A DNA stretch of 44,788 nucleotides from NCBI GenBank assembly GCA_020053275.1, contig JAGVNL010000012.1:1-44788 (forward strand), in the 5' to 3' direction. The translations under genes were made by a program, and so were the position numbers. Shown piece after piece: positions 9,850 to 44,788 of the stretch (the first letter of the stretch is position 1; each line of letters begins with the position of its first letter). The notes under the pieces are model-generated. The model saw only the letters and a list, made by a program, of their open reading frames with translations. It was not told the origin of the DNA and searched no databases. The stretch is from a bacterium (GTDB lineage Bacteria > Patescibacteriota > Patescibacteriia > UBA9934).

Positions 9850-11577
9850 ATGTTGCAAACCGACGCCCTAGCCATCCTAAAGACCGGCCGAAATGTATTT
9901 TTAACTGGCCAACCGGGCGCCGGCAAGAGCCACACGGTGAACCGTTATGTGGCGTATTTGCGTAGCTGTGGCGTCGAACCAGCTATTACGGCCTCTACCG
10001 GCATTGCTGCCACTCACATCAACGGCCTCACTATTCATTCCTGGGCAGGCATCGGTATCAAAAAGTTTTTGTCGCGTAATGATTTGCAGGAAATGTGCGT
10101 GGTCAGCCGGCTAGTCAAGCGCATGAACGGAACCAGCGTCCTCATCATCGACGAAATCTCCATGCTGAGCGGCGCGACGCTCAACCTCGTCGACCAAGTC
10201 TGCCAGTCCTTGCGCCGAAGTCTGCAACCATTCGGTGGCCTCCAGGTAGTCTTCGTTGGCGACTTTTTCCAGCTACCTCCAGTCTCGCGAGCAGATGAAC
10301 CGATGCCGCAATTCGCCTTCATGAGCGACGCTTGGCAACACGCCGCCCCCACCGTTTGTTACCTAAGCGAGCAGCATCGTCAGGAGGACGCCACCTTCTT
10401 AAACATTTTGTCGGCTCTCCGTAACGGCAGCCTGGATGAAGATCATCTGCGTCATCTTCAGGCCAGGCAAATCAAGCGCGAGGAAACTACGGACATCACC
10501 ACACTCTTCCCACATAACGCCGATGTTGACCGCATCAACGCTACGCACCTCGCAAAATTACTCGGCAAAGAGCAGAGCTACACCATGGCCGGTCATGGCG
10601 CACCGCCGCTCATCGAGCAGCTTAAGCGCGGTTGCTTATCGCCAGATCGCCTTGTCCTAAAAGTTGGCGCTCGCGTCATGTTTACCAAAAACCATTTTGA
10701 CGAAGGCTTTGTGAACGGCACAACCGGTGTCGTTAAAGACTTCGCGCATGATTCAAAATACCCAATCGTTGAGCTGCGTTCTGGGCGCCGTATTCAGGTG
10801 ACGCCAGATACCTGGAGCATTGACGGCGACGGCCGGCCGCTCGCTAGTGTCATTCAATTGCCGCTTCGTTTAGCCTGGGCGATGACCGTTCACAAGAGTC
10901 AGGGGATGTCGCTCGACGCCGCCTTCGTCGACCTCGGCCAGGCCTTCGCTTACGGCCAGGGTTATGTTGCGCTCTCCCGTGTTCGCACTTTAGCTGGCTT
11001 GTTTCTTGGCGGCTTAAATGCCAGGGCTCTCGAAGTAGACGAGAATGTGTTGCAGGAAGACGCTAAGTTTTTAGAGTCTAGCAACGCCGCTCAAGCTGAA
11101 TTACTAGAAATCAACGCCGCAGATTTGCTGGCCAAGCACGAAGGCTTTGTGGCTAATTGTGGTGGCACAACCTCTGGCTTTAAGCTTTTTGGCGACAAGG
11201 CTCCACGCCTTAAAAAAGCCAAGAAGGTAAAAGAACCAAAATGGCAAAAAACCTTTGACTTAATTTTGAACCAAAAAACAATTGAGGAGATTTGCGAAAC
11301 TCTCAATCGCCAACCAAGCACCATCATGGACCACCTTGACGACTTGCTCGCCCTCAAAAAAATTGCCGCGAGCGATCTCGCTCATCTGCTGTTCATTCCA
11401 GGCGTCAACGAAATCCATGGCGCATTCGAGAGCGGCCTTAAGCCAGAATTCCTAAAGCCAATTTACGAACACTTTAATGGTTTTTATGGCTACGATCTTA
11501 TTCGTTTAGCTCGCTTACTTTATTCGACAACTAGCAGTGTAGGAGGAACCACCAGGCCCGCCAAAAGCAGTAGCTAG
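9850..11577 (+). CDS. Pif1-family 5'-3' DNA helicase with C-terminal helix-turn-helix
   Basis: NVFLTGQPGAGKS, ASTGIAA, LIIDEISM, GDFFQLPPV, QLPLRLAWAMTVHKSQGMS, YVALSR; C-terminal LKPIYEHF...YDLIRLAR domain. Confidence 0.92.
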   Translation: MLQTDALAILKTGRNVFLTGQPGAGKSHTVNRYVAYLRSCGVEPAITASTGIAATHINGLTIHSWAGIGIKKFLSRNDLQEMCVVSRLVKRMNGTSVLIIDEISMLSGATLNLVDQVCQSLRRSLQPFGGLQVVFVGDFFQLPPVSRADEPMPQFAFMSDAWQHAAPTVCYLSEQHRQEDATFLNILSALRNGSLDEDHLRHLQARQIKREETTDITTLFPHNADVDRINATHLAKLLGKEQSYTMAGHGAPPLIEQLKRGCLSPDRLVLKVGARVMFTKNHFDEGFVNGTTGVVKDFAHDSKYPIVELRSGRRIQVTPDTWSIDGDGRPLASVIQLPLRLAWAMTVHKSQGMSLDAAFVDLGQAFAYGQGYVALSRVRTLAGLFLGGLNARALEVDENVLQEDAKFLESSNAAQAELLEINAADLLAKHEGFVANCGGTTSGFKLFGDKAPRLKKAKKVKEPKWQKTFDLILNQKTIEEICETLNRQPSTIMDHLDDLLALKKIAASDLAHLLFIPGVNEIHGAFESGLKPEFLKPIYEHFNGFYGYDLIRLARLLYSTTSSVGGTTRPAKSSS

Positions 11578-12573
11578 ATTTTTTCCTAACGGCATAATTC
11601 GCGGAGGTTTTTGCGTCAAATCGAGCAGTGCAATTTTTGACATCATCATCTCTATGCCAGATGCCGTTTCGGTACCGCAACCAAGAGTGACAATCAAATG
11701 ATCTTCATCGCAGAAAGCACCATAGGCAATAGAGGTTGTTTTACAGATTGCGTAATCAGCATCAACCGCACTCACTGTAGCAGGCTTTGGATGCCGGATA
11801 GATCCACCTGTTTTACTAATGACACTATCAATAAACGAAGATCTTTGAATACCTTGAAACAACTCTACATTATTGCAGTAAGTCGCTGTACCATTAAAGC
11901 CCCAAAAACAATGAGCTGTACCGTCACTTGGCGTAACCTCAATAATCTTGTTTGTACTAGTTTGATAAATCTGCGCTTGCGCAGTGTTGCTACCTTTACC
12001 TTCACCAAAAAGTTGATAAAAAATTATGTCACCAAGCACTGATGCGTGTGGCTCATTATAATTACCCGGTGGAGTAATAGCCCGCGCATTGGTAAGCGTT
12101 GTTGGTGAAGAAAAATCGGCCATCCGGAGCGGCGAGTTAGCAACTAGCGGAGCAAAGACCGCGCTCTTACCATTTGGCAATGGCGCCAAACCGCGAGCTC
12201 CTGCCTGTAATGTTCCACTACTTCCATTATCAGTATTGATCCATTCGATATCGGCTTGTTTGCTGTTACTCCAAATATTTGCATAGACGAACTCATTGTC
12301 TGCAGAGAATACTGGAAATACTTCAGCGCCATCCTGGTCAGTTAATTGTCTTATTGAAGATACTGTTCCATCGAGTTCAATATCAGCTAGAAAGATATCG
12401 CAACCAGCATTGCTGTGCGTATCGCAGCCATCGTTATTACCAAAGTCCGCACCAAAAACAATCTGGGCGGATTTCGTTCTTGATGATGAAGTGGTATAGA
12501 TGATGACACCAATTGCGCAAACCACAAGACTGAACACGATCGCTACAAGCAGTAGACGGGAATTTTTCAACAT
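11515..12573 (-). CDS. Membrane-anchored TolB/PD40-like beta-propeller protein
   Basis: N-terminal TM; DIFLADIE...RQLTDQDGAEVFPVFSADN PD40-like blade; multiple Cys; TG-C-TATAAT promoter upstream. Confidence 0.6.
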   Translation of the reverse strand: MLKNSRLLLVAIVFSLVVCAIGVIIYTTSSSRTKSAQIVFGADFGNNDGCDTHSNAGCDIFLADIELDGTVSSIRQLTDQDGAEVFPVFSADNEFVYANIWSNSKQADIEWINTDNGSSGTLQAGARGLAPLPNGKSAVFAPLVANSPLRMADFSSPTTLTNARAITPPGNYNEPHASVLGDIIFYQLFGEGKGSNTAQAQIYQTSTNKIIEVTPSDGTAHCFWGFNGTATYCNNVELFQGIQRSSFIDSVISKTGGSIRHPKPATVSAVDADYAICKTTSIAYGAFCDEDHLIVTLGCGTETASGIEMMMSKIALLDLTQKPPRIMPLGKNLATAFGGPGGSSYTASCRIK

Positions 12574-12682: not shown

Positions 12683-14161
12683 ATGGCCGAGAATGTTGTC
12701 GTCAGGTTTGAAAATGTGTCGTTTGGCTACGACAAAGATAATTTACTTCTGGACGAGGTCAATTTTGGTGTCCGTGAGAACAGCAAGATGACTGTCATGG
12801 GTCAAAACGGGGCAGGGAAGAGCACAATTTTCAAGCTCTTAACCGGAGTTCTTACGCCAGATAAAGGTCAAATCCATTTTGCCAAAAATGCTAAAATCGC
12901 CATCGCTACTCAGGTCGTGCCTCGTGAATGGTTGAATGACACCGTACAGGAGTTTTTCGCTCATGCCTTCACCGAGTTGCAATACGATCTCGATAAAAAA
13001 ATTACCGATGTCATGGAAATCGTAGACCTGCAGACACCGCTTCTAGACAAACACATAAAAGATTTCTCCGGCGGTCAGCAAGCTCGTTTACTTCTAGCCT
13101 ACGCTCTAATTCAAGACCCAGACATTTTGCTGCTCGACGAGCCAACCAATAACCTCGACACTGCAGGCATTGAGCACCTCACCGGTTTTCTCATGATGTA
13201 CATGAAAACAGTTTTGGTAATTTCTCACGACGCCGACTTCCTAAATGCTTTCACGGAAGGCGTGTTGCACCTAGATATTTTTAGTCATAAGGTGGATCGC
13301 TACGAAGGCAACTACTTTGATGTGGTGGAGGAAATCACTGCACGAGTAGAGCGCGACCGTATGAAAAACGCCCGACTCTTGAAAGAGATTCAGGATCGCA
13401 AGGACAAGATTAACTTCTTTGCGCAAAAGGGCGGAAAGATGCGTAAGCTGGCCAGCAAGTTGCGTGATCAGGTTGCCGATGCCGAAGAAAATATGGTGGA
13501 TGTAAAACGCGACGATCGCACCATTCGCGATTTCATCATTCCGACTCAAGACTTCGGTGAACCAATGGTGGAGATCTCCAGTGTCAAAATAATTAAAAAT
13601 CACGAGGCCGAACGCAAGGAGGTCAAGATTACGCTTCGTCGCCGGCATCGTTTGTTGATTAGTGGCCCGAACGGAATTGGTAAAAGCACGCTTCTTCGTC
13701 TCCTCGCCGACAACACTGACGAAGGTGTCACAATTACTAAGGGCGTTAATGTGGGCTACTATCGTCAGGATTTCTCCGGCCTCGACTTCGACCAGACGGC
13801 CTACGCCTCACTGGCCAGTGTGATGGAAAACGAAGGCGATGTGACCACCAATGGAGCAGCCAACGAAAAGCTCCGCGCCGTTGCTTCACAATTCCTGCTA
13901 ACAGGAGATCTTCTCGGTAACAAGGTTGGCTCGCTGTCCGAAGGTCAAAAAGGTTTGCTTTGCTTCGCCCGTTTCGTTTTGCAAAAACCAGGCCTCCTCA
14001 TTCTCGACGAGCCAACAAACCACATCAACTTCCGCCATCTGCCAATCATTGCCGCAGCTCTCGAGCAATTCGGTGGTGCCATGATAATGGTTAGTCATGT
14101 CCCAGATTTCGTAGCAAAAATCTCGTTCAACCAATTCCTTGATCTAGGAACACTCCAGTAA
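12683..14161 (+). CDS. ABC-F family ATPase (ribosome-associated)
   Basis: Two ABC domains (GQNGAGKS/FSGGQ/LLLDEPTNNLD; GPNGIGKS/LSEGQK/LILDEPTNH); no TM segments. Confidence 0.92.
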   Translation: MAENVVVRFENVSFGYDKDNLLLDEVNFGVRENSKMTVMGQNGAGKSTIFKLLTGVLTPDKGQIHFAKNAKIAIATQVVPREWLNDTVQEFFAHAFTELQYDLDKKITDVMEIVDLQTPLLDKHIKDFSGGQQARLLLAYALIQDPDILLLDEPTNNLDTAGIEHLTGFLMMYMKTVLVISHDADFLNAFTEGVLHLDIFSHKVDRYEGNYFDVVEEITARVERDRMKNARLLKEIQDRKDKINFFAQKGGKMRKLASKLRDQVADAEENMVDVKRDDRTIRDFIIPTQDFGEPMVEISSVKIIKNHEAERKEVKITLRRRHRLLISGPNGIGKSTLLRLLADNTDEGVTITKGVNVGYYRQDFSGLDFDQTAYASLASVMENEGDVTTNGAANEKLRAVASQFLLTGDLLGNKVGSLSEGQKGLLCFARFVLQKPGLLILDEPTNHINFRHLPIIAAALEQFGGAMIMVSHVPDFVAKISFNQFLDLGTLQ

Positions 14162-14647
14162 TTTATAAATAACCATTCCACCAGGCGTTTCAAACTGAAT
14201 TTTATCGCCGACGCTGTGGCCGATTAGTGCCACGCCGAGTGGGGAGAGGTGAGAAATGCGCCCCTTACCAGGGCTACTCTCCTGCGAACCAAGTATTTCC
14301 AACTTCATTGTTTTCCCACTAACCTCAACCGTCACTGTAGAACCGATGTGAACTTTTCCAGTGTCATCATCCTGATCAATCGGTACAGCAAATCGCAACT
14401 GTTCATCAAGAAAAGTGATGCGGTTATTCAAACGACGCAAGGCCGCCTTGGCCGCCTGGTACCCAGCGTTCTCGGAGAAGTCGCCTTCTTCAGCCGTGCG
14501 TTGCATTTCTAGTGCTAACGCTGGTCGTTCTTTAGTCAAACGCAAAATCTCTTGGCGCATCCGCTCCATGGTCCCTCGGGTGAGGTGGTGGTCATCCACC
14601 TTTTTACTCGCTGCCAAAACTTCTGATTGCCGTACTGGTACTCGCAT
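14144..14647 (-). CDS. greA: GreA/GreB family transcription elongation factor
   Basis: EEGDFSENAGYQAAK, ISHLSPLGVALIG. Confidence 0.88.
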   Translation of the reverse strand: MRVPVRQSEVLAASKKVDDHHLTRGTMERMRQEILRLTKERPALALEMQRTAEEGDFSENAGYQAAKAALRRLNNRITFLDEQLRFAVPIDQDDDTGKVHIGSTVTVEVSGKTMKLEILGSQESSPGKGRISHLSPLGVALIGHSVGDKIQFETPGGMVIYKLLECS

Positions 14648-16506: not shown

Positions 16507-17913
16507 ATGGATATCCGCATTGTCGTAGGAAAGCTGGAAGAACAGGCAGACGATGTGTTAATTCGTTTTAGCGAAGGCAAGGCCTCGGAAGTCCTTATTG
16601 AGCCGTCACCCGTCGGTTGCAGTGCCAAGTATTTACTCACCGTCGGTCTTGGTGAAGAGGCGGAGGTTGATCTCGAAGTCATCCGCGAAGCAACCGGCGT
16701 GGCGCTCTCATCAGCTCGTGGCCTCAAGATTTCTTCGTTGAGTCTTGCCCTGCCGAGCCTCGACGAATTCGCCATCGACGCCATCACTCAAGCCATGCAC
16801 GAAGCTATCTTGCTCGCCACCTACTCTTATAGTGAGTTCAAAAAACCGTCCGAAGCCAAGCTTAAACTCTCATCGATAAATATTATTGTTGAGCGCAAAC
16901 AATTAGCGCTGGCGCAAAAAGGTTTCAACCGTGCCGCCACACTCATCGGCGGAGTCACCCTGGCTCGTGACCTCGTCAACCAGCCACCAAATAATCTCCA
17001 TCCCCAGGCTCTCGTCGACGCAGCTCAAAAAATTGCCAAGTCCTCGCACGGCACCATTACACTCAAAGTTCTCGACGAGGCTGCTTGCGCTAAGCTCGGC
17101 ATGGGTTCATATCTAGCGGTCGGTGCCGGTTCCGAGTTTCCATCAAAGTTCATTCACCTCACCTACACGCCAAAAACCAAGTCGAAGAAATCGTTTGCTA
17201 TTGTCGGCAAGGGCATTACTTTTGACTCCGGCGGTTTATCACTCAAGCCAGCAGACGCTATGATGACCATGAAATGTGATATGGGAGGGGCGGCCGCCGT
17301 CCTCGGGCTATTCAGCGTCATTGCAACCCTCGCGCCAAAGGCTACCGTGCACGGCATCATCGCCGCTGCGGAGAACATGCCAAGCGGCAAGGCTATGCGC
17401 CCGGGTGACATCGTTACCGCCATGAACGGCAAGACTATCGAAATCCTCAACACCGACGCCGAAGGTCGCCTCACCCTAGCCGACGCTTTGTGCTACGCCG
17501 TCACCCTCGAGCCGACCGCCGTCGTCGACTTGGCAACGCTGACTGGTGCTTGCGTTGTTGCGCTCGGCGAAGAAATTGCCAGCCTCATGACGAATGATGA
17601 AAATCTTGCTGTCGAATTATTAGCCGCCGCGGATCGGGCTGGCGAAAAATTGTGGGAGATGCCGCTGCCACCTCGTTACAAACCGCTCATCGAAAGCGAG
17701 GTCGCCGACCTGCGCAACATCGCCACCAGTCGTTACGGTGGGTCACTTACCGCTGGCCTATTCCTGCAAGAATTCGTCGGCACCACCCCCTGGGCCCACC
17801 TCGATATCGCCGGCCCCGCTTTCGCCGAACGCCCCCTTGCTTCATACCTCGCCAAAGGCGGCACCGGTTACGCCGTCCGTACCTTGGCCGAGTGGCTCAC
17901 TAAACTTCGCTAA
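16507..17913 (+). CDS. pepA: Leucyl aminopeptidase (M17)
   Basis: VGKGITFDSGG, MKCDMGG, NTDAEGRLTLADAL, WAHLDIAG. Confidence 0.95.
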   Translation: MDIRIVVGKLEEQADDVLIRFSEGKASEVLIEPSPVGCSAKYLLTVGLGEEAEVDLEVIREATGVALSSARGLKISSLSLALPSLDEFAIDAITQAMHEAILLATYSYSEFKKPSEAKLKLSSINIIVERKQLALAQKGFNRAATLIGGVTLARDLVNQPPNNLHPQALVDAAQKIAKSSHGTITLKVLDEAACAKLGMGSYLAVGAGSEFPSKFIHLTYTPKTKSKKSFAIVGKGITFDSGGLSLKPADAMMTMKCDMGGAAAVLGLFSVIATLAPKATVHGIIAAAENMPSGKAMRPGDIVTAMNGKTIEILNTDAEGRLTLADALCYAVTLEPTAVVDLATLTGACVVALGEEIASLMTNDENLAVELLAAADRAGEKLWEMPLPPRYKPLIESEVADLRNIATSRYGGSLTAGLFLQEFVGTTPWAHLDIAGPAFAERPLASYLAKGGTGYAVRTLAEWLTKLR

Positions 17914-17918
17914 CCTAC

Positions 17919-17958
17919 AGTGGTCTACCTCGAAGGTATACGCTCGAGGTAGACCACT
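17919..17958. repeat. Palindromic element TCTAC(C)TCGA type
   Basis: 15-bp perfect arms AGTGGTCTACCTCGA / TCGAGGTAGACCACT with a 10-nt loop; related to 24270-24305. Confidence 0.7.
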
Positions 17959-18013: not shown

Positions 18014-18052
18014 CCAGAAAAGAAAGACGCCCGGCCTGGAAGGACTCCAGGA
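18014..18052 (-). repeat. 3' element/terminator shared by the two paralogous orphans (copy 1)
   Basis: CCAGAAAAGAAAGACGCC is identical at 18014-18031 and 18919-18936, followed by GGA...ACTCCAGG; U-rich tail on the minus strand. Confidence 0.65.
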
Positions 18053-18080
18053 CGCGGACGACGGGTGGACTGTTCAATCA

Positions 18081-18830
18081 TCAGCCCTGCAGGCTGGAGT
18101 ACTTCAGCACTCGTTCGTAGTCGGCGGCCAGCAGCGGGTCGGTCGTGAAGCCGTGTTCGGTGAACCACTGCTTGAGTTCAGGCGGCGCATCGCCTACGGT
18201 CATCATTAGCTGCCAGGCGTCGAAAACGGTGGCGGAGGGGCCGTTCCTGGCCTGCAACACCCAGTCAACCACAGCTCGCGGCATCTTCGTATTGTGGACA
18301 TCGACGCTGAACCGCCAGAGCATGGTGGCATCGACCGACACTGGTGGCGTGTACTTGAACACCTCGTCGAGCGTCATTTGCTGATGCAAGCCGTGGCTGG
18401 CAAGCAGGCGGTCGAGGTTGCCATGCAACGCCTCCATCATGGAAATCCTGGGGAGGAGTGCCATGGCCAGCGGCGTCGGCGTACCGATAATTCCACAGTA
18501 ATTGCGTGTCAGATCTGCCAGCGCACGATCGACCGGACCAAATAGGCTGGTCTGAATGAGTGTGATCCGTGGCAGGTTCTGACCAATCGCCCCGCAGTTC
18601 GGCAGGTCGCCCAGGTGCAGATCGAAGGATTCGAGTATCTCTGTGACATTCTCGCGAGCGGCGTCGGTTAGCAGGACGAGCGAGCCGCGCAGTAGGATGT
18701 CGACCACGAAGTAGAGGCCGAGCTGGGTCAGCTCCTGCAATGTGTCGGCGTTGAAACCAGCCTGGTGGCACGGACAATCGAGTTGTGGGTTGAGGGGGCG
18801 ACTGACGGAGATGGGGAGGGGTAGGGGCAT
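18081..18830 (-). CDS. Orphan protein with degenerate RNAP alpha-CTD-like repeats (paralog 1)
   Basis: 249 aa; co-linear similarity to 18987-19769 (PL.P.L..PC...GF...TL.E.T..G....VDI; GL...MTLD..F...PPV; P.EL.QWF; AD.ERV.K). GGAG SD and TTGACC-17-TAATCT promoter. Confidence 0.7.
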   Translation of the reverse strand: MPLPLPISVSRPLNPQLDCPCHQAGFNADTLQELTQLGLYFVVDILLRGSLVLLTDAARENVTEILESFDLHLGDLPNCGAIGQNLPRITLIQTSLFGPVDRALADLTRNYCGIIGTPTPLAMALLPRISMMEALHGNLDRLLASHGLHQQMTLDEVFKYTPPVSVDATMLWRFSVDVHNTKMPRAVVDWVLQARNGPSATVFDAWQLMMTVGDAPPELKQWFTEHGFTTDPLLAADYERVLKYSSLQG

Positions 18831-18848
18831 TGTTTTGACTCCACCGTC

Positions 18849-18877
18849 AGATTACGCTTTTGCTTGTAATAGGTCAA
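18849..18877 (-). promoter_or_regulatory. Sigma70 promoter of paralog 1
   Basis: TTGACC-17 nt-TAATCT. Confidence 0.6.
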
Positions 18878-18882
18878 AAAGT

Positions 18883-18920
18883 GGTGAATACCCCAGGGAT
18901 AGAAACCAGGGGTATTCACC
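18883..18920. repeat. Intergenic inverted repeat
   Basis: GGTGAATACCCC-14nt-GGGGTATTCACC, 12-bp perfect arms. Confidence 0.65.
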
Positions 18921-18965
18921 AGAAAAGAAAGACGCCTCGTCCGGAGAGAACTCCAGGCAGGCGTC
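18919..18965 (-). terminator. 3' element/terminator shared by the two paralogous orphans (copy 2)
   Basis: GACGCCT...AGGCGTC stem followed on the minus strand by TTTCTTTTCTGG. Confidence 0.6.
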
Positions 18966-18986
18966 AGGGGCTTGGCTGCGGTAGCA

Positions 18987-19769
18987 CTATTCTGACTTGA
19001 TGAGCTTCATCACGCGCTCGAGGTCAGCGGAGGAGATGCGCTGCAACGGCATGTTCTTGCTCACGAACCACTGCACCAGCTCGTCCGGCGGATCGCTCAC
19101 AGCCATGACCGCCAGCCAGATATGAATCACTTGCGGCAGCACATCGGTGTGGCTACGAACCCAATCCTCACCTTCTGGCGAGAGTACTGGGTAACGCGCC
19201 TCAAGCTCGCAAGTCTTCAGTTGTTTCTTGGTCAACGGCGGTTGGCTGGCAACTGGTGGACCCTGGAAGATCTGGTCGAGCGTCATGTCGCAGCGCAGGC
19301 CGTAGGGCAGCAACGCTAGGTTGACCTGCCGCTTCTCATCCTCGGAGAACCCGAACCCGTGGTGGATGGCCAGCGACAACAGGGTGAGCGAACCGACTGC
19401 AACGGGCGGGCTGCCGACCTGCTTGCTGAACTGTTCCACGAATTCAGCACTCATCTTCACGATCAGCTCGGCTGTGATGCCCTGGAGTCGAGCAGCGTTC
19501 TTGGCCAGGATCCGGTTGAAGGGCAGCTCCCCAATGTGGATGCAGAGCCTGCTCATCACGCTGATGATGTCCTTCACAGCGTCACTGCTGAAAGTTCCTA
19601 GCAGCTCGGACATCTCGAGCGCGACGATGTCGACCAAGCAGAGATAGCCACGAGCGGTGATCTCGGCCAGAGTCTCGTTGGTGAAGCCGCAGCTGGCACA
19701 CGGCAGGCGCAATGCGGGGTGCAGCGGAACATGAGCGTGCAGGGGGAGAGTGAGCGGGATGGCGTGCAT
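18987..19769 (-). CDS. Orphan protein with degenerate RNAP alpha-CTD-like repeats (paralog 2)
   Basis: 260 aa; PALRLPCASCGFTNETLAEITARGYLCLVDIVALEMSELLGTFSSDAVKDIISVMSRLCIHIG aligns by eye to the alpha-CTD; GAGG SD. Confidence 0.7.
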   Translation of the reverse strand: MHAIPLTLPLHAHVPLHPALRLPCASCGFTNETLAEITARGYLCLVDIVALEMSELLGTFSSDAVKDIISVMSRLCIHIGELPFNRILAKNAARLQGITAELIVKMSAEFVEQFSKQVGSPPVAVGSLTLLSLAIHHGFGFSEDEKRQVNLALLPYGLRCDMTLDQIFQGPPVASQPPLTKKQLKTCELEARYPVLSPEGEDWVRSHTDVLPQVIHIWLAVMAVSDPPDELVQWFVSKNMPLQRISSADLERVMKLIKSE

Positions 19770-19789
19770 GGTAACCTCGAGAGGGGACT

Positions 19790-19835: not shown

Positions 19836-20357
19836 TTACGCTTTGCCTAGCGTCGCTGTTCCAGGTTCCCATTCAATAGGACAAAGCTCACCAGACTGTA
19901 AGGCCTGCAAAACTCGTAAAGTCTCTTTAGTTGAGCGGCCAACCGAACCAGCAGAGACGAGGGCATACATCACCACACCTTCAGGATTGATAATGAAAAT
20001 GCCCCGTTGTGAGCTGCCGTCGACATCTAGAACATCATAGTCTCGACTTGTGCTTTGGTTAGTATCGGCGATGATCGGAAAGGTAACTTCAGGTAAATCT
20101 CGTTCAAACCAGGCTTTATGGCTCCATTCACTATCGGTACTTATACCAATAATGGCTGCGTTTAGAGTGTCAAAGTCAGCTGTGTGTTTAGCGAAACTCT
20201 TCAATTCAGTTGGGCAGATGAAGGTAAAATCACGAGGATAAAACAGTAACACTAGCCATTTTCCCAGGTAATCCTCGAGGGAGAGTTGTTTGAATTCACC
20301 AGCTTGATAAGCGGTCTGAAGATAGAACTTGGGAGCGAGTTGGCCAATATTGATCAT
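19836..20357 (-). CDS. ahpC: 2-Cys peroxiredoxin (AhpC/Prx1)
   Basis: FYPRDFTFICPTE, STDSEWSHKAW, GELCPIEW. Alternative start at 20366. Confidence 0.92.
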   Translation of the reverse strand: MINIGQLAPKFYLQTAYQAGEFKQLSLEDYLGKWLVLLFYPRDFTFICPTELKSFAKHTADFDTLNAAIIGISTDSEWSHKAWFERDLPEVTFPIIADTNQSTSRDYDVLDVDGSSQRGIFIINPEGVVMYALVSAGSVGRSTKETLRVLQALQSGELCPIEWEPGTATLGKA

Positions 20358-20415
20358 AGGAATCATTTATAGGACTTTAATAATCCAGAGAATTTATGGT
20401 ACCATAATTCCATCT

Positions 20416-39926: not shown

Positions 39927-42900
39927 TTGTTCTTCGGAGTGATTGGTGCCATAAGCCTTTGTTTGTTGATTTTACCATCAACCACACTGGCCACAGCCGC
40001 AGACCAAGACAGTTCGCCATTTGTAACAAATAATCAAATCAAACTCGCACCAGATATGCGCACTGGTGCGTTTTCATATTCATTTCCAATTACCTTACCG
40101 CCAGGTCGTAATGGCTTGCAGCCCAACCTCGGTCTGTCATATAGCAGCAGTAATACGGACATCACAAATCTTGCTGGTTACGGCTGGTCACTCAATATTC
40201 CCACCATCGAACGCGTGGCAAAATACGGCGCTGACGATCTATATACCAACCATGATTTCTCATCTTCGCTGTCTGGTGACCTCGAGGATATCACGCTCTC
40301 TGACGCCACCCATGGCACTTTCGGCGCCAAGGTTGACGATGGCTCGTTCCTGGCCTACATCTATAATTCCGACGAGTCGTGGACTGTCACAGACAAGCAT
40401 GGCACAATCTACACTTTTGACGCAGATACTTCGGCACAAGTTGTCGATAGCACGGACAGCACGCATGTCTTCCGCTGGTATCTCACCGAGGTCCGTGACA
40501 CGAATGATAATTTTGTTGCTTACACTTACACTAAAGACGCAGGTCAGGTTTATCCCTCAACCATTACCTACACCGGCCATGGCAGCACCGCTGGTATTTT
40601 CGCTGTAAATTTTACACTCGCCAGTCGTAATGATGCTGCCGCTTCCTATACAACAGGTTTTTCTGTTAAAACTTCCTATCGTATTTCACAGATCGATGTT
40701 ACTGAAAACAGTTCTACAATTCGCAGCTACGCCTTAGCCTACACAACTGGCGTCAACGGCATCCGCTCGCTTCTCTCAAGTATCACAGAAACCGCAACCG
40801 ACGAAGTAACCTCAGCCACCATCACTAAACCGGAAACAACCTTCGATTATTCAGTTAACTCCGATTCCTGGACTGAAGACACTGGCTTTGGTGGTTTGCC
40901 AATAACCATCGCCGGTTCAGGTAGCGGCAGTCTCGGTATTTATTTTTTTGATGTTAACGGTGACGCTTTGCTAGATATTGTAAAGTCGCGCGATACAGAT
41001 AGAGCGGTATATTTAAACAACGGTGATAATACCTGGACGGTAGATACAAGCATAACAGTACCGCTGGCATTTTGTTTGTCGACCGGTAGAGATAGAGGCG
41101 TTCGCGTGTTTGATGTCAACGGAGATAGCTATCAAGACTTAGTATATTCACATATTAACTCATCAAGCGTTGTAGATGATCTTGTTTACATAAATAATGG
41201 CGACGGTACCGGCTGGACAGAAGACACAGCCATCACTATTCCAATTTACTTCACCAATGATGGCGGATATGACTTTGGTGTCCGTATTATTGATGCTGAC
41301 GGCGACGGCCTGCAGGATATCGTGAAAAGTCGCGCAGGTATGTCACCTGAGGTATATATTAATAACGGTGATGGCACAGGTTGGACGCAGGATACAAACT
41401 ATATTGTTCCAGTGGATTTTGTCAGCACCTCGCTTTATGATCAAGGAGTTAGAGCCTTCGATGTAAACAACGACGGTTTACAGGATCTAGTTTATTCACG
41501 AAACACCTCGTCACTCCAAGAGGCAGTGTACCTCAACGATGGAGATGGTACAGGCTGGACAGAGGATACAAACTACACCGTTCCTGTTGCCTTCACCTAC
41601 TCAATTGGTAATGACCTGGGAGTACGAACATTAGATATTAATGGCGATGGACTTACGGATTTAGTCCAAGATTTTTATACCGGCTCGTCTGAGGTCAAAC
41701 ATGTCTACATCAACAATAGCGACGGTACAGGCTGGACCGAAGATACCAGCTACTCTACACCAATTTATTTCACGAACGGGATTATAGATCTTGGTGTTCG
41801 TGAGGAAGACATCAATGGCGACGGCCTGGTAGATGTTGTTCGTTCAAGAAATTCTGGCAGCCTGCAGGAAAATCTGTACATGGCTACGCCCACCTTTAGT
41901 GATCGCCTGACCGCAGTAACTACCTCAACTGGTGCCTCTACCACCGTTACTTACCAGCCCTCAACCACCGTCGGCGGTGACCTGTCATTCCCACTTTCAG
42001 TAGTTGCCACAGAGACGGTTGACGATGGACTCGGCAATACCGCAACTACCAGTTATGACTTCGCCGATGGGGACTTTTACTACGCCAGTGAATATGATCG
42101 CAAGTTTGCTGGGTTTGGCACGGTAACCATCACTGATGCGCTCGGCAACATGACCAAACGCTATTACCATCAGGGTAATGCGACTGACACCTCGTTTGGT
42201 GAAAGCACAGACGATGTGAGTAAGCTCTGGCAGATGTATCGTGAAGAAATCTATGACGACGCCAGCCATCTCTTCCGTACAGCCATCCATTCATTCACGA
42301 GTACCAGCCTCGGGTCTGACCGCACCTTTGTTTACGAAAACCAAACATTGGAACTCCAGTATGACGCCGACAGCGACCATACGGATTCAGCCACAAGTTA
42401 TACATACAGCTCATCTACTGGAAATCTCACAGAAAAGAAAGAGTGGGGGAGAGTAACTGGCGTTGACGCCGGCACATTCACGGATACCACTGGAGACACC
42501 AGGATAACTGACTACACCTATGCCAGTTTTTCTACCGGCCTTTCGAGCCTTGTCGACGACGAACAGGTCAAGAATAATGCCGGCACAACTGTTGCAGAAA
42601 CTAAATATTGTTTCGACAGCTCGAGTTTTGGCACGGCAACGCTTGGCAACTTGACGACGGAATCTCACTGGACTACTGGTACCTCATTTGTTGACACTAC
42701 CTACACTTACAACAGCTACGGTCTGCTTACCACCAAAACTGATGCCTTGAGCAACACCACAACCTTCGCGCCAGACACCTATAATCTTTTCACTGCCACC
42801 CAAACAGATGCGCTAGCAAACGACACGGATTACACTTACGATTATTCATCAGGGAAAGTTTTAACGACGACGGACATGAATGGGGAAGTCTTCACGACGA

Positions 42901-44788
42901 CTTATGACGCCCTCGACCGTCCTTTAACAGTGGCACAGCCAGTCATCGGCAGTACAGGCTCGGTTACCAGCAAAACATTCACCTACGATGACACGACCCT
43001 ACCGAGCATCATACACGAGATCGACGCCTACGATAGCTCGACTAATCGCGAAATCTATACTTACTCCGATGGCTTAGGCCGCGTCATTCAACAGCGCGTA
43101 GAAGCTGAGAGTACAAACACCTTCGATGTCACAGATACTGTTTACAATGAACTCGGCCAAGTTGCGAGCACCACCTTGCCGTACGCCTCGACCGGTTCGG
43201 CTTACTCTACACCGACGACGGATACCACACTCTACCAAACACTTGTTTACGACGCCTTGAGTCGCGTTACCTCAGCAACAAATGTTGAGGGTACATCAGT
43301 CAAGTCTTACGAAGATTGGGTCGTGACAGAAACTGACGCCCTCAGCCATACTAAAAATTATGCTTACGATGCTTACGGTAATCTAAGCGTGGTTATTGAG
43401 CACAAAGGGAGTACGAATTACACCACAACTTATGTTTGGGACGCACTTGGCCGCTTGACTAGTTTAACCGACGCCGACGGTGCAGTGCGTAATTTTAGCT
43501 ACGATGGTTTAGGCGGGCGTCAAACAGCCCAAGATCTCCATGTCACTACTGACACCTCGTTTGGTACCTGGACCTATACCTACAACGCAGTAGGCAACAT
43601 GGCGACTTCCTACAGCCCAAACAGCATAACCACCACCTACACCTACGACGCTTTGAACCGTGTCATCAGCGAGGACGCTTCGTCAGCCTCTGGGACAGAA
43701 ATTACCTACACCTACGATAGCCGCACATTAGGTGTCGGTCGTCTCTGTCAAACAGTCGTCGCCGGGGGATCAACCACGGCCTACACCTACGACGAACTCG
43801 GTCGCACCGCCAGTGAAGCTAAAACAATTAGTAGCAATACCTACACCACCATTTACACCTACGATCTGCAAGGCGATCAAGCCACCATCACTTATCCTGA
43901 CGGAGCAATAACAGCTTTCACCCTCGGTACTGCTGGTCGCGTTAGTCAAGTCGACTTCACAGACATCGTTAGCTCTGGCGACGCGGTGGCAGCCAGCAGT
44001 GTGGTTTACGCCCCAAACGGCAAAATCACTAGCTTCACTAACGGCAACGGCGTCACTACCGCCTTCACCTACGACGCGTCTGATCTCTATCGCCTATCAA
44101 ATCTCGTCAGTACGAGCGGCAGTAGCAATATCCAAAACTTTGCTTACACCTACGACGCCGCAGGCAACATTAGCCAAATCGCCGATACCTCCAGCCTCTA
44201 CGCAGCAGATACCATTAACTATGCCTACGACGACTTATACCGTTTAACCGCCGCCGTAGCTACCAGCACCGACACCTCTCTCGCCTACAATAAAACCTGG
44301 AGCTATGGTGGCACTGGCAATATCCTAGCCGGTGACGGTCCGACACGCACCTACGGCGGTACTGCCACTGGTAATTATGCCAACCCTCATGCCGTCACTG
44401 CTATGGGTGCTCGAACATTAACCTACGATCACAACGGCAACACCACAAACGAAGGCATGTGGAGCAATACCTGGAACTGGCGGAATCAAATGACGCAATC
44501 AACTAGAACTGGCCCTTCAATCACCGTTACCTACACCTACGACGCCAACGGCAACCGTGTCAGCCAAGTCAACGGTGGCCTCACCCTCATCTACCCAAAC
44601 GAGTACTACTCCTACACCGGCTCCACCAATGATCGTAACATCCCACTACCAGGCTACGGCATGGTGGCAACCAGCAAGCACAAAATAAATACATCAACCA
44701 TCGCTTATCATCATCACGACCACCTGGGCGGGGAACATGTCGACACGGGCAGCACTGGAGCAACTCTCGAATACACTATATACTCACC
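39927..44788 (+). CDS. SpvB/TcaC-N + FG-GAP + TcdB-midN + RHS/YD repeat protein (toxin-like), 3'-truncated by window
   Basis: One frame from 39867 to the window end. TGAFSYSFPITLPPGRNGLQPNLGLSYSS...GYGWSL (SpvB-like), six DxNGDG-type repeats, RKFAGFG, many YD repeats, and YHHHDHLGG (RHS core) at 44706. Start uncertain (TTG 39927, ATG 40056, or out-of-frame ATG 39907). Confidence 0.88.
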   Translation, partial: MFFGVIGAISLCLLILPSTTLATAADQDSSPFVTNNQIKLAPDMRTGAFSYSFPITLPPGRNGLQPNLGLSYSSSNTDITNLAGYGWSLNIPTIERVAKYGADDLYTNHDFSSSLSGDLEDITLSDATHGTFGAKVDDGSFLAYIYNSDESWTVTDKHGTIYTFDADTSAQVVDSTDSTHVFRWYLTEVRDTNDNFVAYTYTKDAGQVYPSTITYTGHGSTAGIFAVNFTLASRNDAAASYTTGFSVKTSYRISQIDVTENSSTIRSYALAYTTGVNGIRSLLSSITETATDEVTSATITKPETTFDYSVNSDSWTEDTGFGGLPITIAGSGSGSLGIYFFDVNGDALLDIVKSRDTDRAVYLNNGDNTWTVDTSITVPLAFCLSTGRDRGVRVFDVNGDSYQDLVYSHINSSSVVDDLVYINNGDGTGWTEDTAITIPIYFTNDGGYDFGVRIIDADGDGLQDIVKSRAGMSPEVYINNGDGTGWTQDTNYIVPVDFVSTSLYDQGVRAFDVNNDGLQDLVYSRNTSSLQEAVYLNDGDGTGWTEDTNYTVPVAFTYSIGNDLGVRTLDINGDGLTDLVQDFYTGSSEVKHVYINNSDGTGWTEDTSYSTPIYFTNGIIDLGVREEDINGDGLVDVVRSRNSGSLQENLYMATPTFSDRLTAVTTSTGASTTVTYQPSTTVGGDLSFPLSVVATETVDDGLGNTATTSYDFADGDFYYASEYDRKFAGFGTVTITDALGNMTKRYYHQGNATDTSFGESTDDVSKLWQMYREEIYDDASHLFRTAIHSFTSTSLGSDRTFVYENQTLELQYDADSDHTDSATSYTYSSSTGNLTEKKEWGRVTGVDAGTFTDTTGDTRITDYTYASFSTGLSSLVDDEQVKNNAGTTVAETKYCFDSSSFGTATLGNLTTESHWTTGTSFVDTTYTYNSYGLLTTKTDALSNTTTFAPDTYNLFTATQTDALANDTDYTYDYSSGKVLTTTDMNGEVFTTTYDALDRPLTVAQPVIGSTGSVTSKTFTYDDTTLPSIIHEIDAYDSSTNREIYTYSDGLGRVIQQRVEAESTNTFDVTDTVYNELGQVASTTLPYASTGSAYSTPTTDTTLYQTLVYDALSRVTSATNVEGTSVKSYEDWVVTETDALSHTKNYAYDAYGNLSVVIEHKGSTNYTTTYVWDALGRLTSLTDADGAVRNFSYDGLGGRQTAQDLHVTTDTSFGTWTYTYNAVGNMATSYSPNSITTTYTYDALNRVISEDASSASGTEITYTYDSRTLGVGRLCQTVVAGGSTTAYTYDELGRTASEAKTISSNTYTTIYTYDLQGDQATITYPDGAITAFTLGTAGRVSQVDFTDIVSSGDAVAASSVVYAPNGKITSFTNGNGVTTAFTYDASDLYRLSNLVSTSGSSNIQNFAYTYDAAGNISQIADTSSLYAADTINYAYDDLYRLTAAVATSTDTSLAYNKTWSYGGTGNILAGDGPTRTYGGTATGNYANPHAVTAMGARTLTYDHNGNTTNEGMWSNTWNWRNQMTQSTRTGPSITVTYTYDANGNRVSQVNGGLTLIYPNEYYSYTGSTNDRNIPLPGYGMVATSKHKINTSTIAYHHHDHLGGEHVDTGSTGATLEYTIYS
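40940..41850 (+). repeat. Six FG-GAP/VCBS-like coding repeats (approx. 55-60 aa)
   Basis: DVNGDALLDIV, DVNGDSYQDLV, DADGDGLQDIV, DVNNDGLQDLV, DINGDGLTDLV, DINGDGLVDVV; the first five are each followed by a variant of VY(I/L)NNGDGTGWTEDT. Confidence 0.85.

Follow-up and report, generated by a model that had tools for sequence, protein, structure and literature searches.

Tandem paralogs with a probable, very degenerate RNA polymerase alpha-CTD in a patescibacterial lineage whose RpoA lacks the domain

We analysed a 44,788-nt stretch of DNA (hereafter the window; contig JAGVNL010000012.1 of assembly GCA_020053275.1) from a bacterium of the GTDB lineage Patescibacteriota; Patescibacteriia; UBA9934, and focused on two tandem genes in it, paralog 1 (P0001) and paralog 2 (P0002). 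In the protein family that they represent, the N-terminal ~70-80 residues very probably descend from the RNA polymerase (RNAP) alpha subunit's C-terminal domain (alpha-CTD), although in a very degenerate form. In the textbook view, UP elements and most class I activators dock on the alpha-CTD, which is normally found only as a tethered tail of the alpha subunit, RpoA. An earlier note on this DNA, made from its letters and translations, had described the two genes as tandem paralogs built from alpha-CTD-like modules that lack the DNA-binding face. Their relationship is indeed evident: P0001 and P0002 align as paralogs from end to end (BLASTP, E 8e-26, with 28% identity in 257 columns). They are real genes, with intact open reading frames (ORFs) and orthologous types kept at one site in related genomes. 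The genome that carries them (786 kb in 39 contigs, 92.7% complete, with the paralogs on contig 4) has a size typical of the reduced genomes of Patescibacteria (candidate phyla radiation, CPR).

Because three lines of evidence agree, namely the fold, the comparison with canonical alpha-CTD profiles and a bridging family, we regard the N-terminal module as an alpha-CTD by descent and not just by resemblance. The first line rests, like all our structural statements, on predicted models. The structure of P0002 was predicted with AlphaFold2 from an input alignment of the 21 family members only, none of which matches PF03118, the Pfam family of the alpha-CTD. The model had a predicted local distance difference test score (pLDDT) of 91.2 and a predicted template modelling score of 0.72, with pLDDT 91-98 over residues 11-80. 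When it was compared with the PDB using Foldseek, 40 of the 41 rows listed were RNAP alpha or alpha-CTD entries (chain identity in multi-chain entries was judged by title and length). Isolated alpha-CTD chains were matched with a template modelling score (TM) normalised to the target of 0.71-0.85 and a root mean square deviation (rmsd) of 1.3-2.3 A over 66-72 columns, at ~20% identity; examples are 3k4g_B (TM(target) 0.71, rmsd 1.8 A, 68 columns) and 8y5t_A2 (TM 0.85, rmsd 1.5 A). The best Foldseek E value was just 0.021, because the domain is small. Thus, the alpha-CTD fold that had been anticipated for residues ~15-85 is what the model and the structural search give. Other modules of the helix-hairpin-helix type that bind the alpha-CTD or DNA, such as the acidic repeats of NusA, domain II of RuvA, or ComEA, are also small helical bundles. 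Since no NusA-repeat, RuvA or ComEA-type module appears in the 41 listed PDB rows, we consider the N module to be specifically alpha-CTD-like.

The second line comes from profile comparison. Using hhalign, the N-terminal block of the family alignment matched a set of nine canonical alpha-CTDs (that of Escherichia coli and eight from related genomes) with a probability of 94.9% and an E value of 4.6e-8 over 70 columns. The real score was 42.5, compared with 9.2 after reversing the columns and 14.1 for the best of 40 column shuffles (probability at most 1.1%). Against the E. coli alpha-CTD alone, the probability of the family block was 71.4%. Single sequences did not suffice: the two paralogs, each taken alone, gave 1.4% and 7.8% against the alpha-CTD, neither of them significant. 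Pfam returned only noise-level matches for the two proteins, with no PF03118 at E <= 10, and PF03118 was matched by none of the 21 family members at that threshold (its gathering score is 23.8 bits). A phmmer search of PDB sequences with P0002 had no match at E <= 10, and PHROGs had none for either paralog at E <= 0.01. The HMMER family profile found 7 weak matches among PDB sequences, including 3 alpha-CTD chains over the same region (E 0.78-1.3). The profile check against PF03118 that had been suggested for these proteins is therefore negative with Pfam and with single sequences, and positive with the family profile. As neither protein is significant alone, the alignment could be shown to be right only by drawing on the fold and on the profile of the family. 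In that register, hhalign reproduces exactly the alignment given in the earlier note, in which residues ~12-80 of P0002 face residues 245-315 of the E. coli protein with a two-residue gap after 'ELL'. The E. coli string used there is correct when checked against K-12 rpoA (L021:2041-3030, minus strand), and the core that P0002 was said to keep is conserved, with equivalents of P251, D280, L289-L290 and G315.

The third line is a family of stand-alone proteins of the same lineage that link the window family to canonical alpha-CTDs. In a congener (G006), we found a 221-aa protein with an 'L.LP...PL' motif, an alpha-CTD, a 'GL...M.IDELF.Y.P' linker and a C-terminal domain. Its alpha-CTD matches PF03118 at 49.9 bits and retains the R..N and G-RKS contact motifs. 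Together with six further database proteins it forms a sister family of 7 (P0014-P0020), of which 6 match PF03118 and most have the middle region described below. The window family and the sister family align by hhalign with a probability of 98.5% (E 1.9e-15) over 189 columns, corresponding to P0002 residues 6-223, and the alignment runs through the N module, the middle region and the linker into the C domain. The profile built from the window family only also matches the linker and C region of the G006 protein (E 5e-6). A neighbouring genus has half-degenerate intermediates of the same architecture, in G131, in G132 and, as a tandem pair, in G138. All these relatives share with the window family the N-terminal motif L.LP...P(L/I), the layout, the C domain and a linker of the form '(H)GL...M.(I/L)(D/E)ELF.Y.P'. 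The sister proteins, however, keep a Pfam-positive alpha-CTD with R..N and G-RKS, whereas the window family lost both motifs; and at least two of the stand-alone relatives occupy another locus, whereas the window family lies in an array between pepA and ahpC. At that other locus, both the G138 pair (L055, G138:C1, 1477-2262 and 2413-3177) and the G006 gene (L019, G006:C17) adjoin an ORF that, judged by eye, is nrnA-like (DHH family), which would give the superfamily a second conserved locus.

With respect to the canonical alpha-CTD (PF03118; E. coli RpoA ~249-329), the likeness of the window family thus consists of the fold, the order of helices and the core positions. In contrast to it, the window family lacks the tether to the alpha N-terminal domain, fails the Pfam model, has its DNA-contact residues replaced and adds ~170 residues without counterpart in RpoA. 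Because the Pfam match, the contact residues and the RpoA tether are all missing, we do not file it as a member of PF03118, but as a degenerate derivative, on a separate branch, of the lineage-specific stand-alone alpha-CTD family.

The DNA-contact face of the module is lost almost completely. At the positions of R265, N268, G296, K298 and S299, the UP-element contacts listed in the earlier note, P0002 has E32, A35, S61, D63 and A64 in the hhalign register, as that note had mapped them; in P0001 the residues there are D, Q, A, E and N. Retention of the canonical residue is limited to 1/21 members at R265, 1/21 at N268, 1/21 at G296, 4/21 at K298 and 1/21 at S299, and the replacements are mostly acidic or neutral. 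The positions conserved in the family are instead glycines and hydrophobic core residues (G41, L82, L131, A134, L153 and L158). Since no conserved residue is polar or looks catalytic, these proteins are most likely non-enzymatic adaptors, that is, binding scaffolds and not enzymes. From the replacements we infer that the N module may no longer bind DNA in the canonical manner and would serve as a protein-binding module. Of the description of the paralogs as stand-alone proteins that cannot bind DNA, the stand-alone state, the alpha-CTD-derived start and the loss of contact residues hold; DNA blindness itself is a prediction from the sequence.

The N module is followed in every member by a middle region of ~85 residues, at the end of which stands the family's most strongly conserved motif (G.PT.LALAL.P ... 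LLA..GL...M.L..IF), and in some members by a C-terminal domain of similar length (Table 1). In hhalign comparisons, the middle and C blocks had probabilities of only 0.1-4.0% against the alpha-CTD or against the N block (2.4% for the middle region versus the alpha-CTD). When residues 87-260 of P0002 were modelled separately (pLDDT 83.7), the top PDB matches were again alpha-CTDs, but weak and unlocalised, with Foldseek E values of 0.72 or more, probabilities of up to 0.66 and an rmsd that was in most cases 7-9 A; the best row was 9gdo_G (TM(target) 0.70, rmsd 3.1 A). A profile of these residues gave 8 chance-level matches to PDB sequences, none consistently related to transcription, and a search of the ESM Atlas with residues 176-260 had no usable match. 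The second and third alpha-CTD modules that had been read into this part of the protein therefore find no support in the sequence comparisons, and the match in fold is weak.

The genomic context of this family is a lineage whose RpoA has no C-terminal domain. The RpoA of the window's own genome has 247 aa and contains only PF01000 and PF01193 (contig 19, L012:1270-2013, minus strand); rplQ follows after 5 nt, and a six-frame scan of the genome has 0 matches to PF03118 at E <= 10. We compared rpoA across the phylum, with genome counts that are samples of the groups and include some incomplete genomes. Within the order, rpoA frames have 182-307 aa in all 41 genomes searched, two of them cut by contig ends. 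Five genomes sampled from the rest of the class have frames of 243-268 aa, whereas in the other classes of the phylum 108 of 114 genomes have frames of 299-365 aa, and in the four of these that we checked a single frame holds both PF01000 and PF03118. PF03118 is matched above cut-off in 17 of the 41 genomes of the order, and none of the 48 matches listed there adjoins rpoA. Loss of the alpha-CTD in Parcubacteria is mentioned in passing in one article (PMC8321222), which cites Nelson and Stegen (2015) for it; the word 'polymerase' is absent from the main text of the latter (PMC4508563).

Several other homes of the domain were found. In four genomes of this CTD-less lineage, G010 (L013), G041 (L014), G042 (L017) and G024 (L018), proteins of ~400-500 aa with a helix-turn-helix-like N-terminal part combine sigma factor region 4 (Sigma70_r4, PF04545) with a C-terminal canonical alpha-CTD (PF03118), and G010 has a tandem pair of them. 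These fusions resemble the window family in carrying the alpha-CTD outside RpoA, but differ in having a canonical alpha-CTD with PF04545 and in lacking the middle and C regions. We know of no description of such a fusion. The window's own genome, when searched for a homologue, yields only matches to region 4 of two sigma factors. A prophage origin of the G010 pair was considered and rejected: its neighbours are rplJ, xseA, queA and a gene for a pyrH-like kinase, and no phage gene lies among them. Phage proteins in BFVD that are labelled 'RNA polymerase, alpha subunit, C-terminal' also match the alpha-CTD fold (probability 0.99, rmsd 1.4 A, 64 columns). They are stand-alone like the window family, but about half its length, with the middle and C-terminal regions unmatched and identities of 6-16%. 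Entries of uncultured Caudovirales, among them A0A6J5L490 (131 aa), A0A6J5QDR9 and A0A6J5MNY7, have ~105-135 aa and the alpha-CTD fold. Our literature searches found no paper on phage stand-alone alpha-CTD proteins or on the window family, and the full-text search none on stand-alone or degenerate alpha-CTD families; Pfam has no entry for the window family. As to the earlier statement that no system like this has been described, we likewise found no paper describing one, but stand-alone alpha-CTDs exist in relatives and in phage entries, and the kind is therefore not wholly new. In all genomes of the class that we searched, RpoA is without an alpha-CTD, while alpha-CTD modules persist elsewhere, in fusions to sigma region 4, in small stand-alone proteins and in the fast-diversifying, presumably DNA-blind tandem family.

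The family is rare. A full HMMER scan of 1.84 billion representative proteins returned 9 at E <= 0.001, P0001 and P0002 included; a word-based search with P0002 found 2 proteins and a profile search with the family alignment 4, the query counted in both cases. A homologue carries the label 'Candidatus Uhrbacteria' in one public source. The family profile matches 7 of 162 genomes of the order, and full members occur in just four genomes of a single genus. In these four they always form an array between ahpC and pepA, which has 2 genes in this window, 4 in each of two other genomes and at least 7 in the remaining one; the further paralogs that had been suggested as worth looking for thus exist, as a family of 21 aligned members with arrays in three congeners at the same site. 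Orthologous types recur at that site in the three congeners, and two types are 79-83% identical between congeners. In another genome (G002), the ahpC-pepA site holds a single C-domain-like ORF of 130 aa (L037, G002:C10, 2218-2610), either a remnant or a C-domain-only member. Such truncated forms, together with members consisting only of the N module and middle region, raise the question of whether the paralogs themselves are what remains of a stand-alone alpha-CTD gene that once had a function, drifting after the loss of their functional residues; the fact that congeners can dispense with them would fit. We find this very improbable. Both ORFs are intact and each has a Shine-Dalgarno-like site and a terminator-like element, the core is conserved enough to yield a model with pLDDT 91 from 21 sequences, different types of paralog persist as orthologues between species, two of them at the identities just given, and the high GC content at third codon positions (GC3) has been kept.

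We tentatively propose that the paralogs are accessory, dispensable modulators of the cell's transcription machinery, acting as non-enzymatic adaptors derived from the alpha-CTD. The family branches off from stand-alone proteins of its lineage that share the layout and still have a canonical alpha-CTD. According to our proposal, its N module would bind a sigma factor, a regulator or RNAP itself, contacts specific to each paralog would come from the middle and C-terminal parts, and through the array the cell would have a variable set of adaptors. We consider the transcription machinery the likeliest target because of the alpha-CTD ancestry and because the lineage also has the fusions of sigma region 4 with the alpha-CTD. 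A more specific version, which we regard as quite unlikely, is that the array consists of exchangeable trans-acting 'alpha-CTD cassettes' that dock non-covalently, via the middle region, on the CTD-less RNAP or on sigma. If so, the choice of paralog would alter partners or promoters, much like the swapping of sigma factors but at the alpha position, and the DNA-blind members in the window would be negative or adaptor versions.

Several observations weigh against a role as modulators of transcription. The positions of the 261 and 287 determinants, the sigma-contact and activator-contact patches of the alpha-CTD, are not conserved across the 21 members, so that the partner, if there is one, cannot be inferred from the canonical domain. 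As to the ancestry itself, an HMMER search with the profile of the family alone did not, at E <= 0.001, extend to the G006 protein's canonical alpha-CTD, and homology therefore rests on the comparison of profiles with profiles and of folds. The family is also dispensable. In G005, a congener whose genome is 100% complete, nothing but 163 nt separates ahpC from pepA, and the genome has neither a family member nor a match to PF03118. The composition of the paralogs stands apart from the genome (GC 60-61% and GC3 77-79%, versus a genome GC of 49.2%), placing them at the 95th-97th percentile of ORFs, and the GC-rich contrast holds in the arrays of the three congeners too. Finally, the array genes of G000 and G001 are only 38-43% identical (P0001 39%, P0002 38%), compared with 87% for pepA and 90% for ahpC, and such fast divergence is more typical of genes of conflict or host interaction than of core regulators.

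The same divergence, combined with the variable copy number, would suit the interpretation of the earlier note, that the paralogs are decoys or mimics: DNA-blind copies that titrate partners of the alpha-CTD (activators, NusA-like or Spx-like proteins) in the cell or in a host bacterium. The fold kept with its DNA-contact residues lost is what a decoy would show, rapid divergence and variable copy number fit a conflict between organisms, and a genome of 786 kb fits a symbiotic lifestyle. A decoy directed at the alpha-CTD partners of another organism would moreover be harmless to its producer, because the producer's own RNAP has no alpha-CTD. The same fact weakens titration within the cell, since with an RpoA without CTD and a genome without PF03118 there is no resident alpha-CTD detectable to compete with. 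Mimicry of the known sigma and activator surfaces is not evident, given that their positions are not conserved. A host-directed form is imaginable, but we found no support for it: inspection of the P0001 and P0002 sequences revealed no visible N-terminal hydrophobic signal, and no secretion gene is found among the neighbours, the flanks consisting of pepA and ahpC and, beyond ahpC, of genes for a DUF3179 protein, an rsmI-like methylase and MetRS (metG), that is, of housekeeping genes. On balance, we consider a decoy function unlikely.

The modulator proposal must also be weighed against a possibility that we hold to be real, if rather doubtful: that the alpha-CTD fold was co-opted as a generic protein-binding scaffold outside transcription, for example in phage-host or symbiont-host conflict, on a small mobile island. 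The island-like composition in all four genomes points in that direction, as does a fixed insertion site whose content varies from no gene or 1 remnant to 2, 4, 4 and at least 7 genes. Within the array and at its edge there are structured inverted repeats, which recur in congeners, the distribution over the order is patchy (7 of 162 genomes), the divergence is extreme and no known functional surface of the alpha-CTD is retained. Yet the flanks examined, in this genome and in the three congeners with arrays, hold no integrase, transposase or other mobility gene; the PHROGs search at E <= 0.01 was negative, and no defence match was seen, PADLOC not having been scanned. Furthermore, the alpha-CTD of the nearest relatives is still the canonical, DNA-binding one, which points to an ancestry in nucleic-acid binding or transcription.

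What the family would mean depends on where it acts. If the paralogs act on transcription, they would show a minimal organism rebuilding the input from activators and promoter-upstream sequences without a tethered alpha-CTD, and the passage from canonical to half-degenerate to fully degenerate proteins would be a natural separation-of-function series for the non-DNA roles of the fold. If they act elsewhere, a core domain of transcription would have been recruited into a fast-evolving accessory gene island. The lineage-wide move of the alpha-CTD out of RpoA is, in our opinion, the part most worth pursuing.

The features of the locus are listed in Table 1. The assignment of an own Shine-Dalgarno (SD) site and terminator to each gene, made in the first description of the paralogs, holds for SD-like and terminator-like elements. 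An SD-like sequence precedes each start codon and a hairpin with a U-run follows each gene, but neither hairpin is significantly more stable than shuffled sequences, and a consensus terminator scan did not flag the one after paralog 1. The intergenic inverted repeat at 18882-18921 may serve in termination, as an operator or in recombination; an exact 15-mer of it is also present within the arrays of G004 (L010) and G001 (L011). The inverted repeat at 17919-17958 is probably a bidirectional terminator.

Table 1. Features of the two paralogs and of their immediate surroundings (window coordinates)
Feature	Coordinates	Strand	Remarks
Paralog 2 (P0002) ORF	18987-19769, including stop codon	minus	260 aa, intact; N module, middle region and C-terminal domain
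P0002 degenerate alpha-CTD fold, residues ~12-80	19530-19736	minus	predicted helices 31-39, 45-49, 53-59, 62-74
P0002 family-specific helical middle region, residues ~86-175	19245-19514	minus	family alignment
P0002 optional C-terminal five-helix domain, residues ~176-260	18990-19244	minus	in 12/21 aligned members
Paralog 1 (P0001) ORF	18081-18830, including stop codon	minus	249 aa, intact; three-part architecture as in paralog 2
P0001 alpha-CTD-like N module, residues ~9-74	18609-18806	minus	family alignment and residue table
SD-like GAGG	19775-19778	minus	5 nt 5' of paralog 2 ATG; read from sequence
SD-like GGAG (in GGTGGAG)	18839-18842	minus	8 nt 5' of paralog 1 ATG; read from sequence
Terminator-like hairpin and UUUCUUUUCU 3' of paralog 2	18921-18965	minus	-26.1 kcal/mol, z -1.6, not significant versus shuffles
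Equivalent hairpin and U-run 3' of paralog 1	18014-18062	minus	-25.5 kcal/mol, z -0.9, not significant
27-nt direct repeat	18919-18945 and 18014-18040	minus	copies 85% identical; one in each post-gene hairpin region
Intergenic inverted repeat, 16-nt arms	18882-18921		between paralogs; arms 94% complementary; z -7.9, 0/200 shuffles as stable
Inverted repeat, 20-nt abutting arms	17919-17958		between convergent pepA and paralog 1 ends; arms 90% complementary; z -5.5
pepA, leucyl aminopeptidase M17	16507-17913	plus	convergent with paralog 1
ahpC, AhpC/TSA peroxiredoxin	19836-20366	minus	flank of paralog 2

Our annotation of the window covered 9.8-23.7 kb. A transcription elongation factor of the GreA/GreB family is encoded at 14144-14647 (minus strand), 3.4 kb from the paralogs, and a 352-aa ORF at 11515-12573 (minus strand) has no Pfam match at E <= 0.001. 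At 39927-44786 (plus strand), a very large ORF, 1620 aa or more in length, extends past the end of the window.

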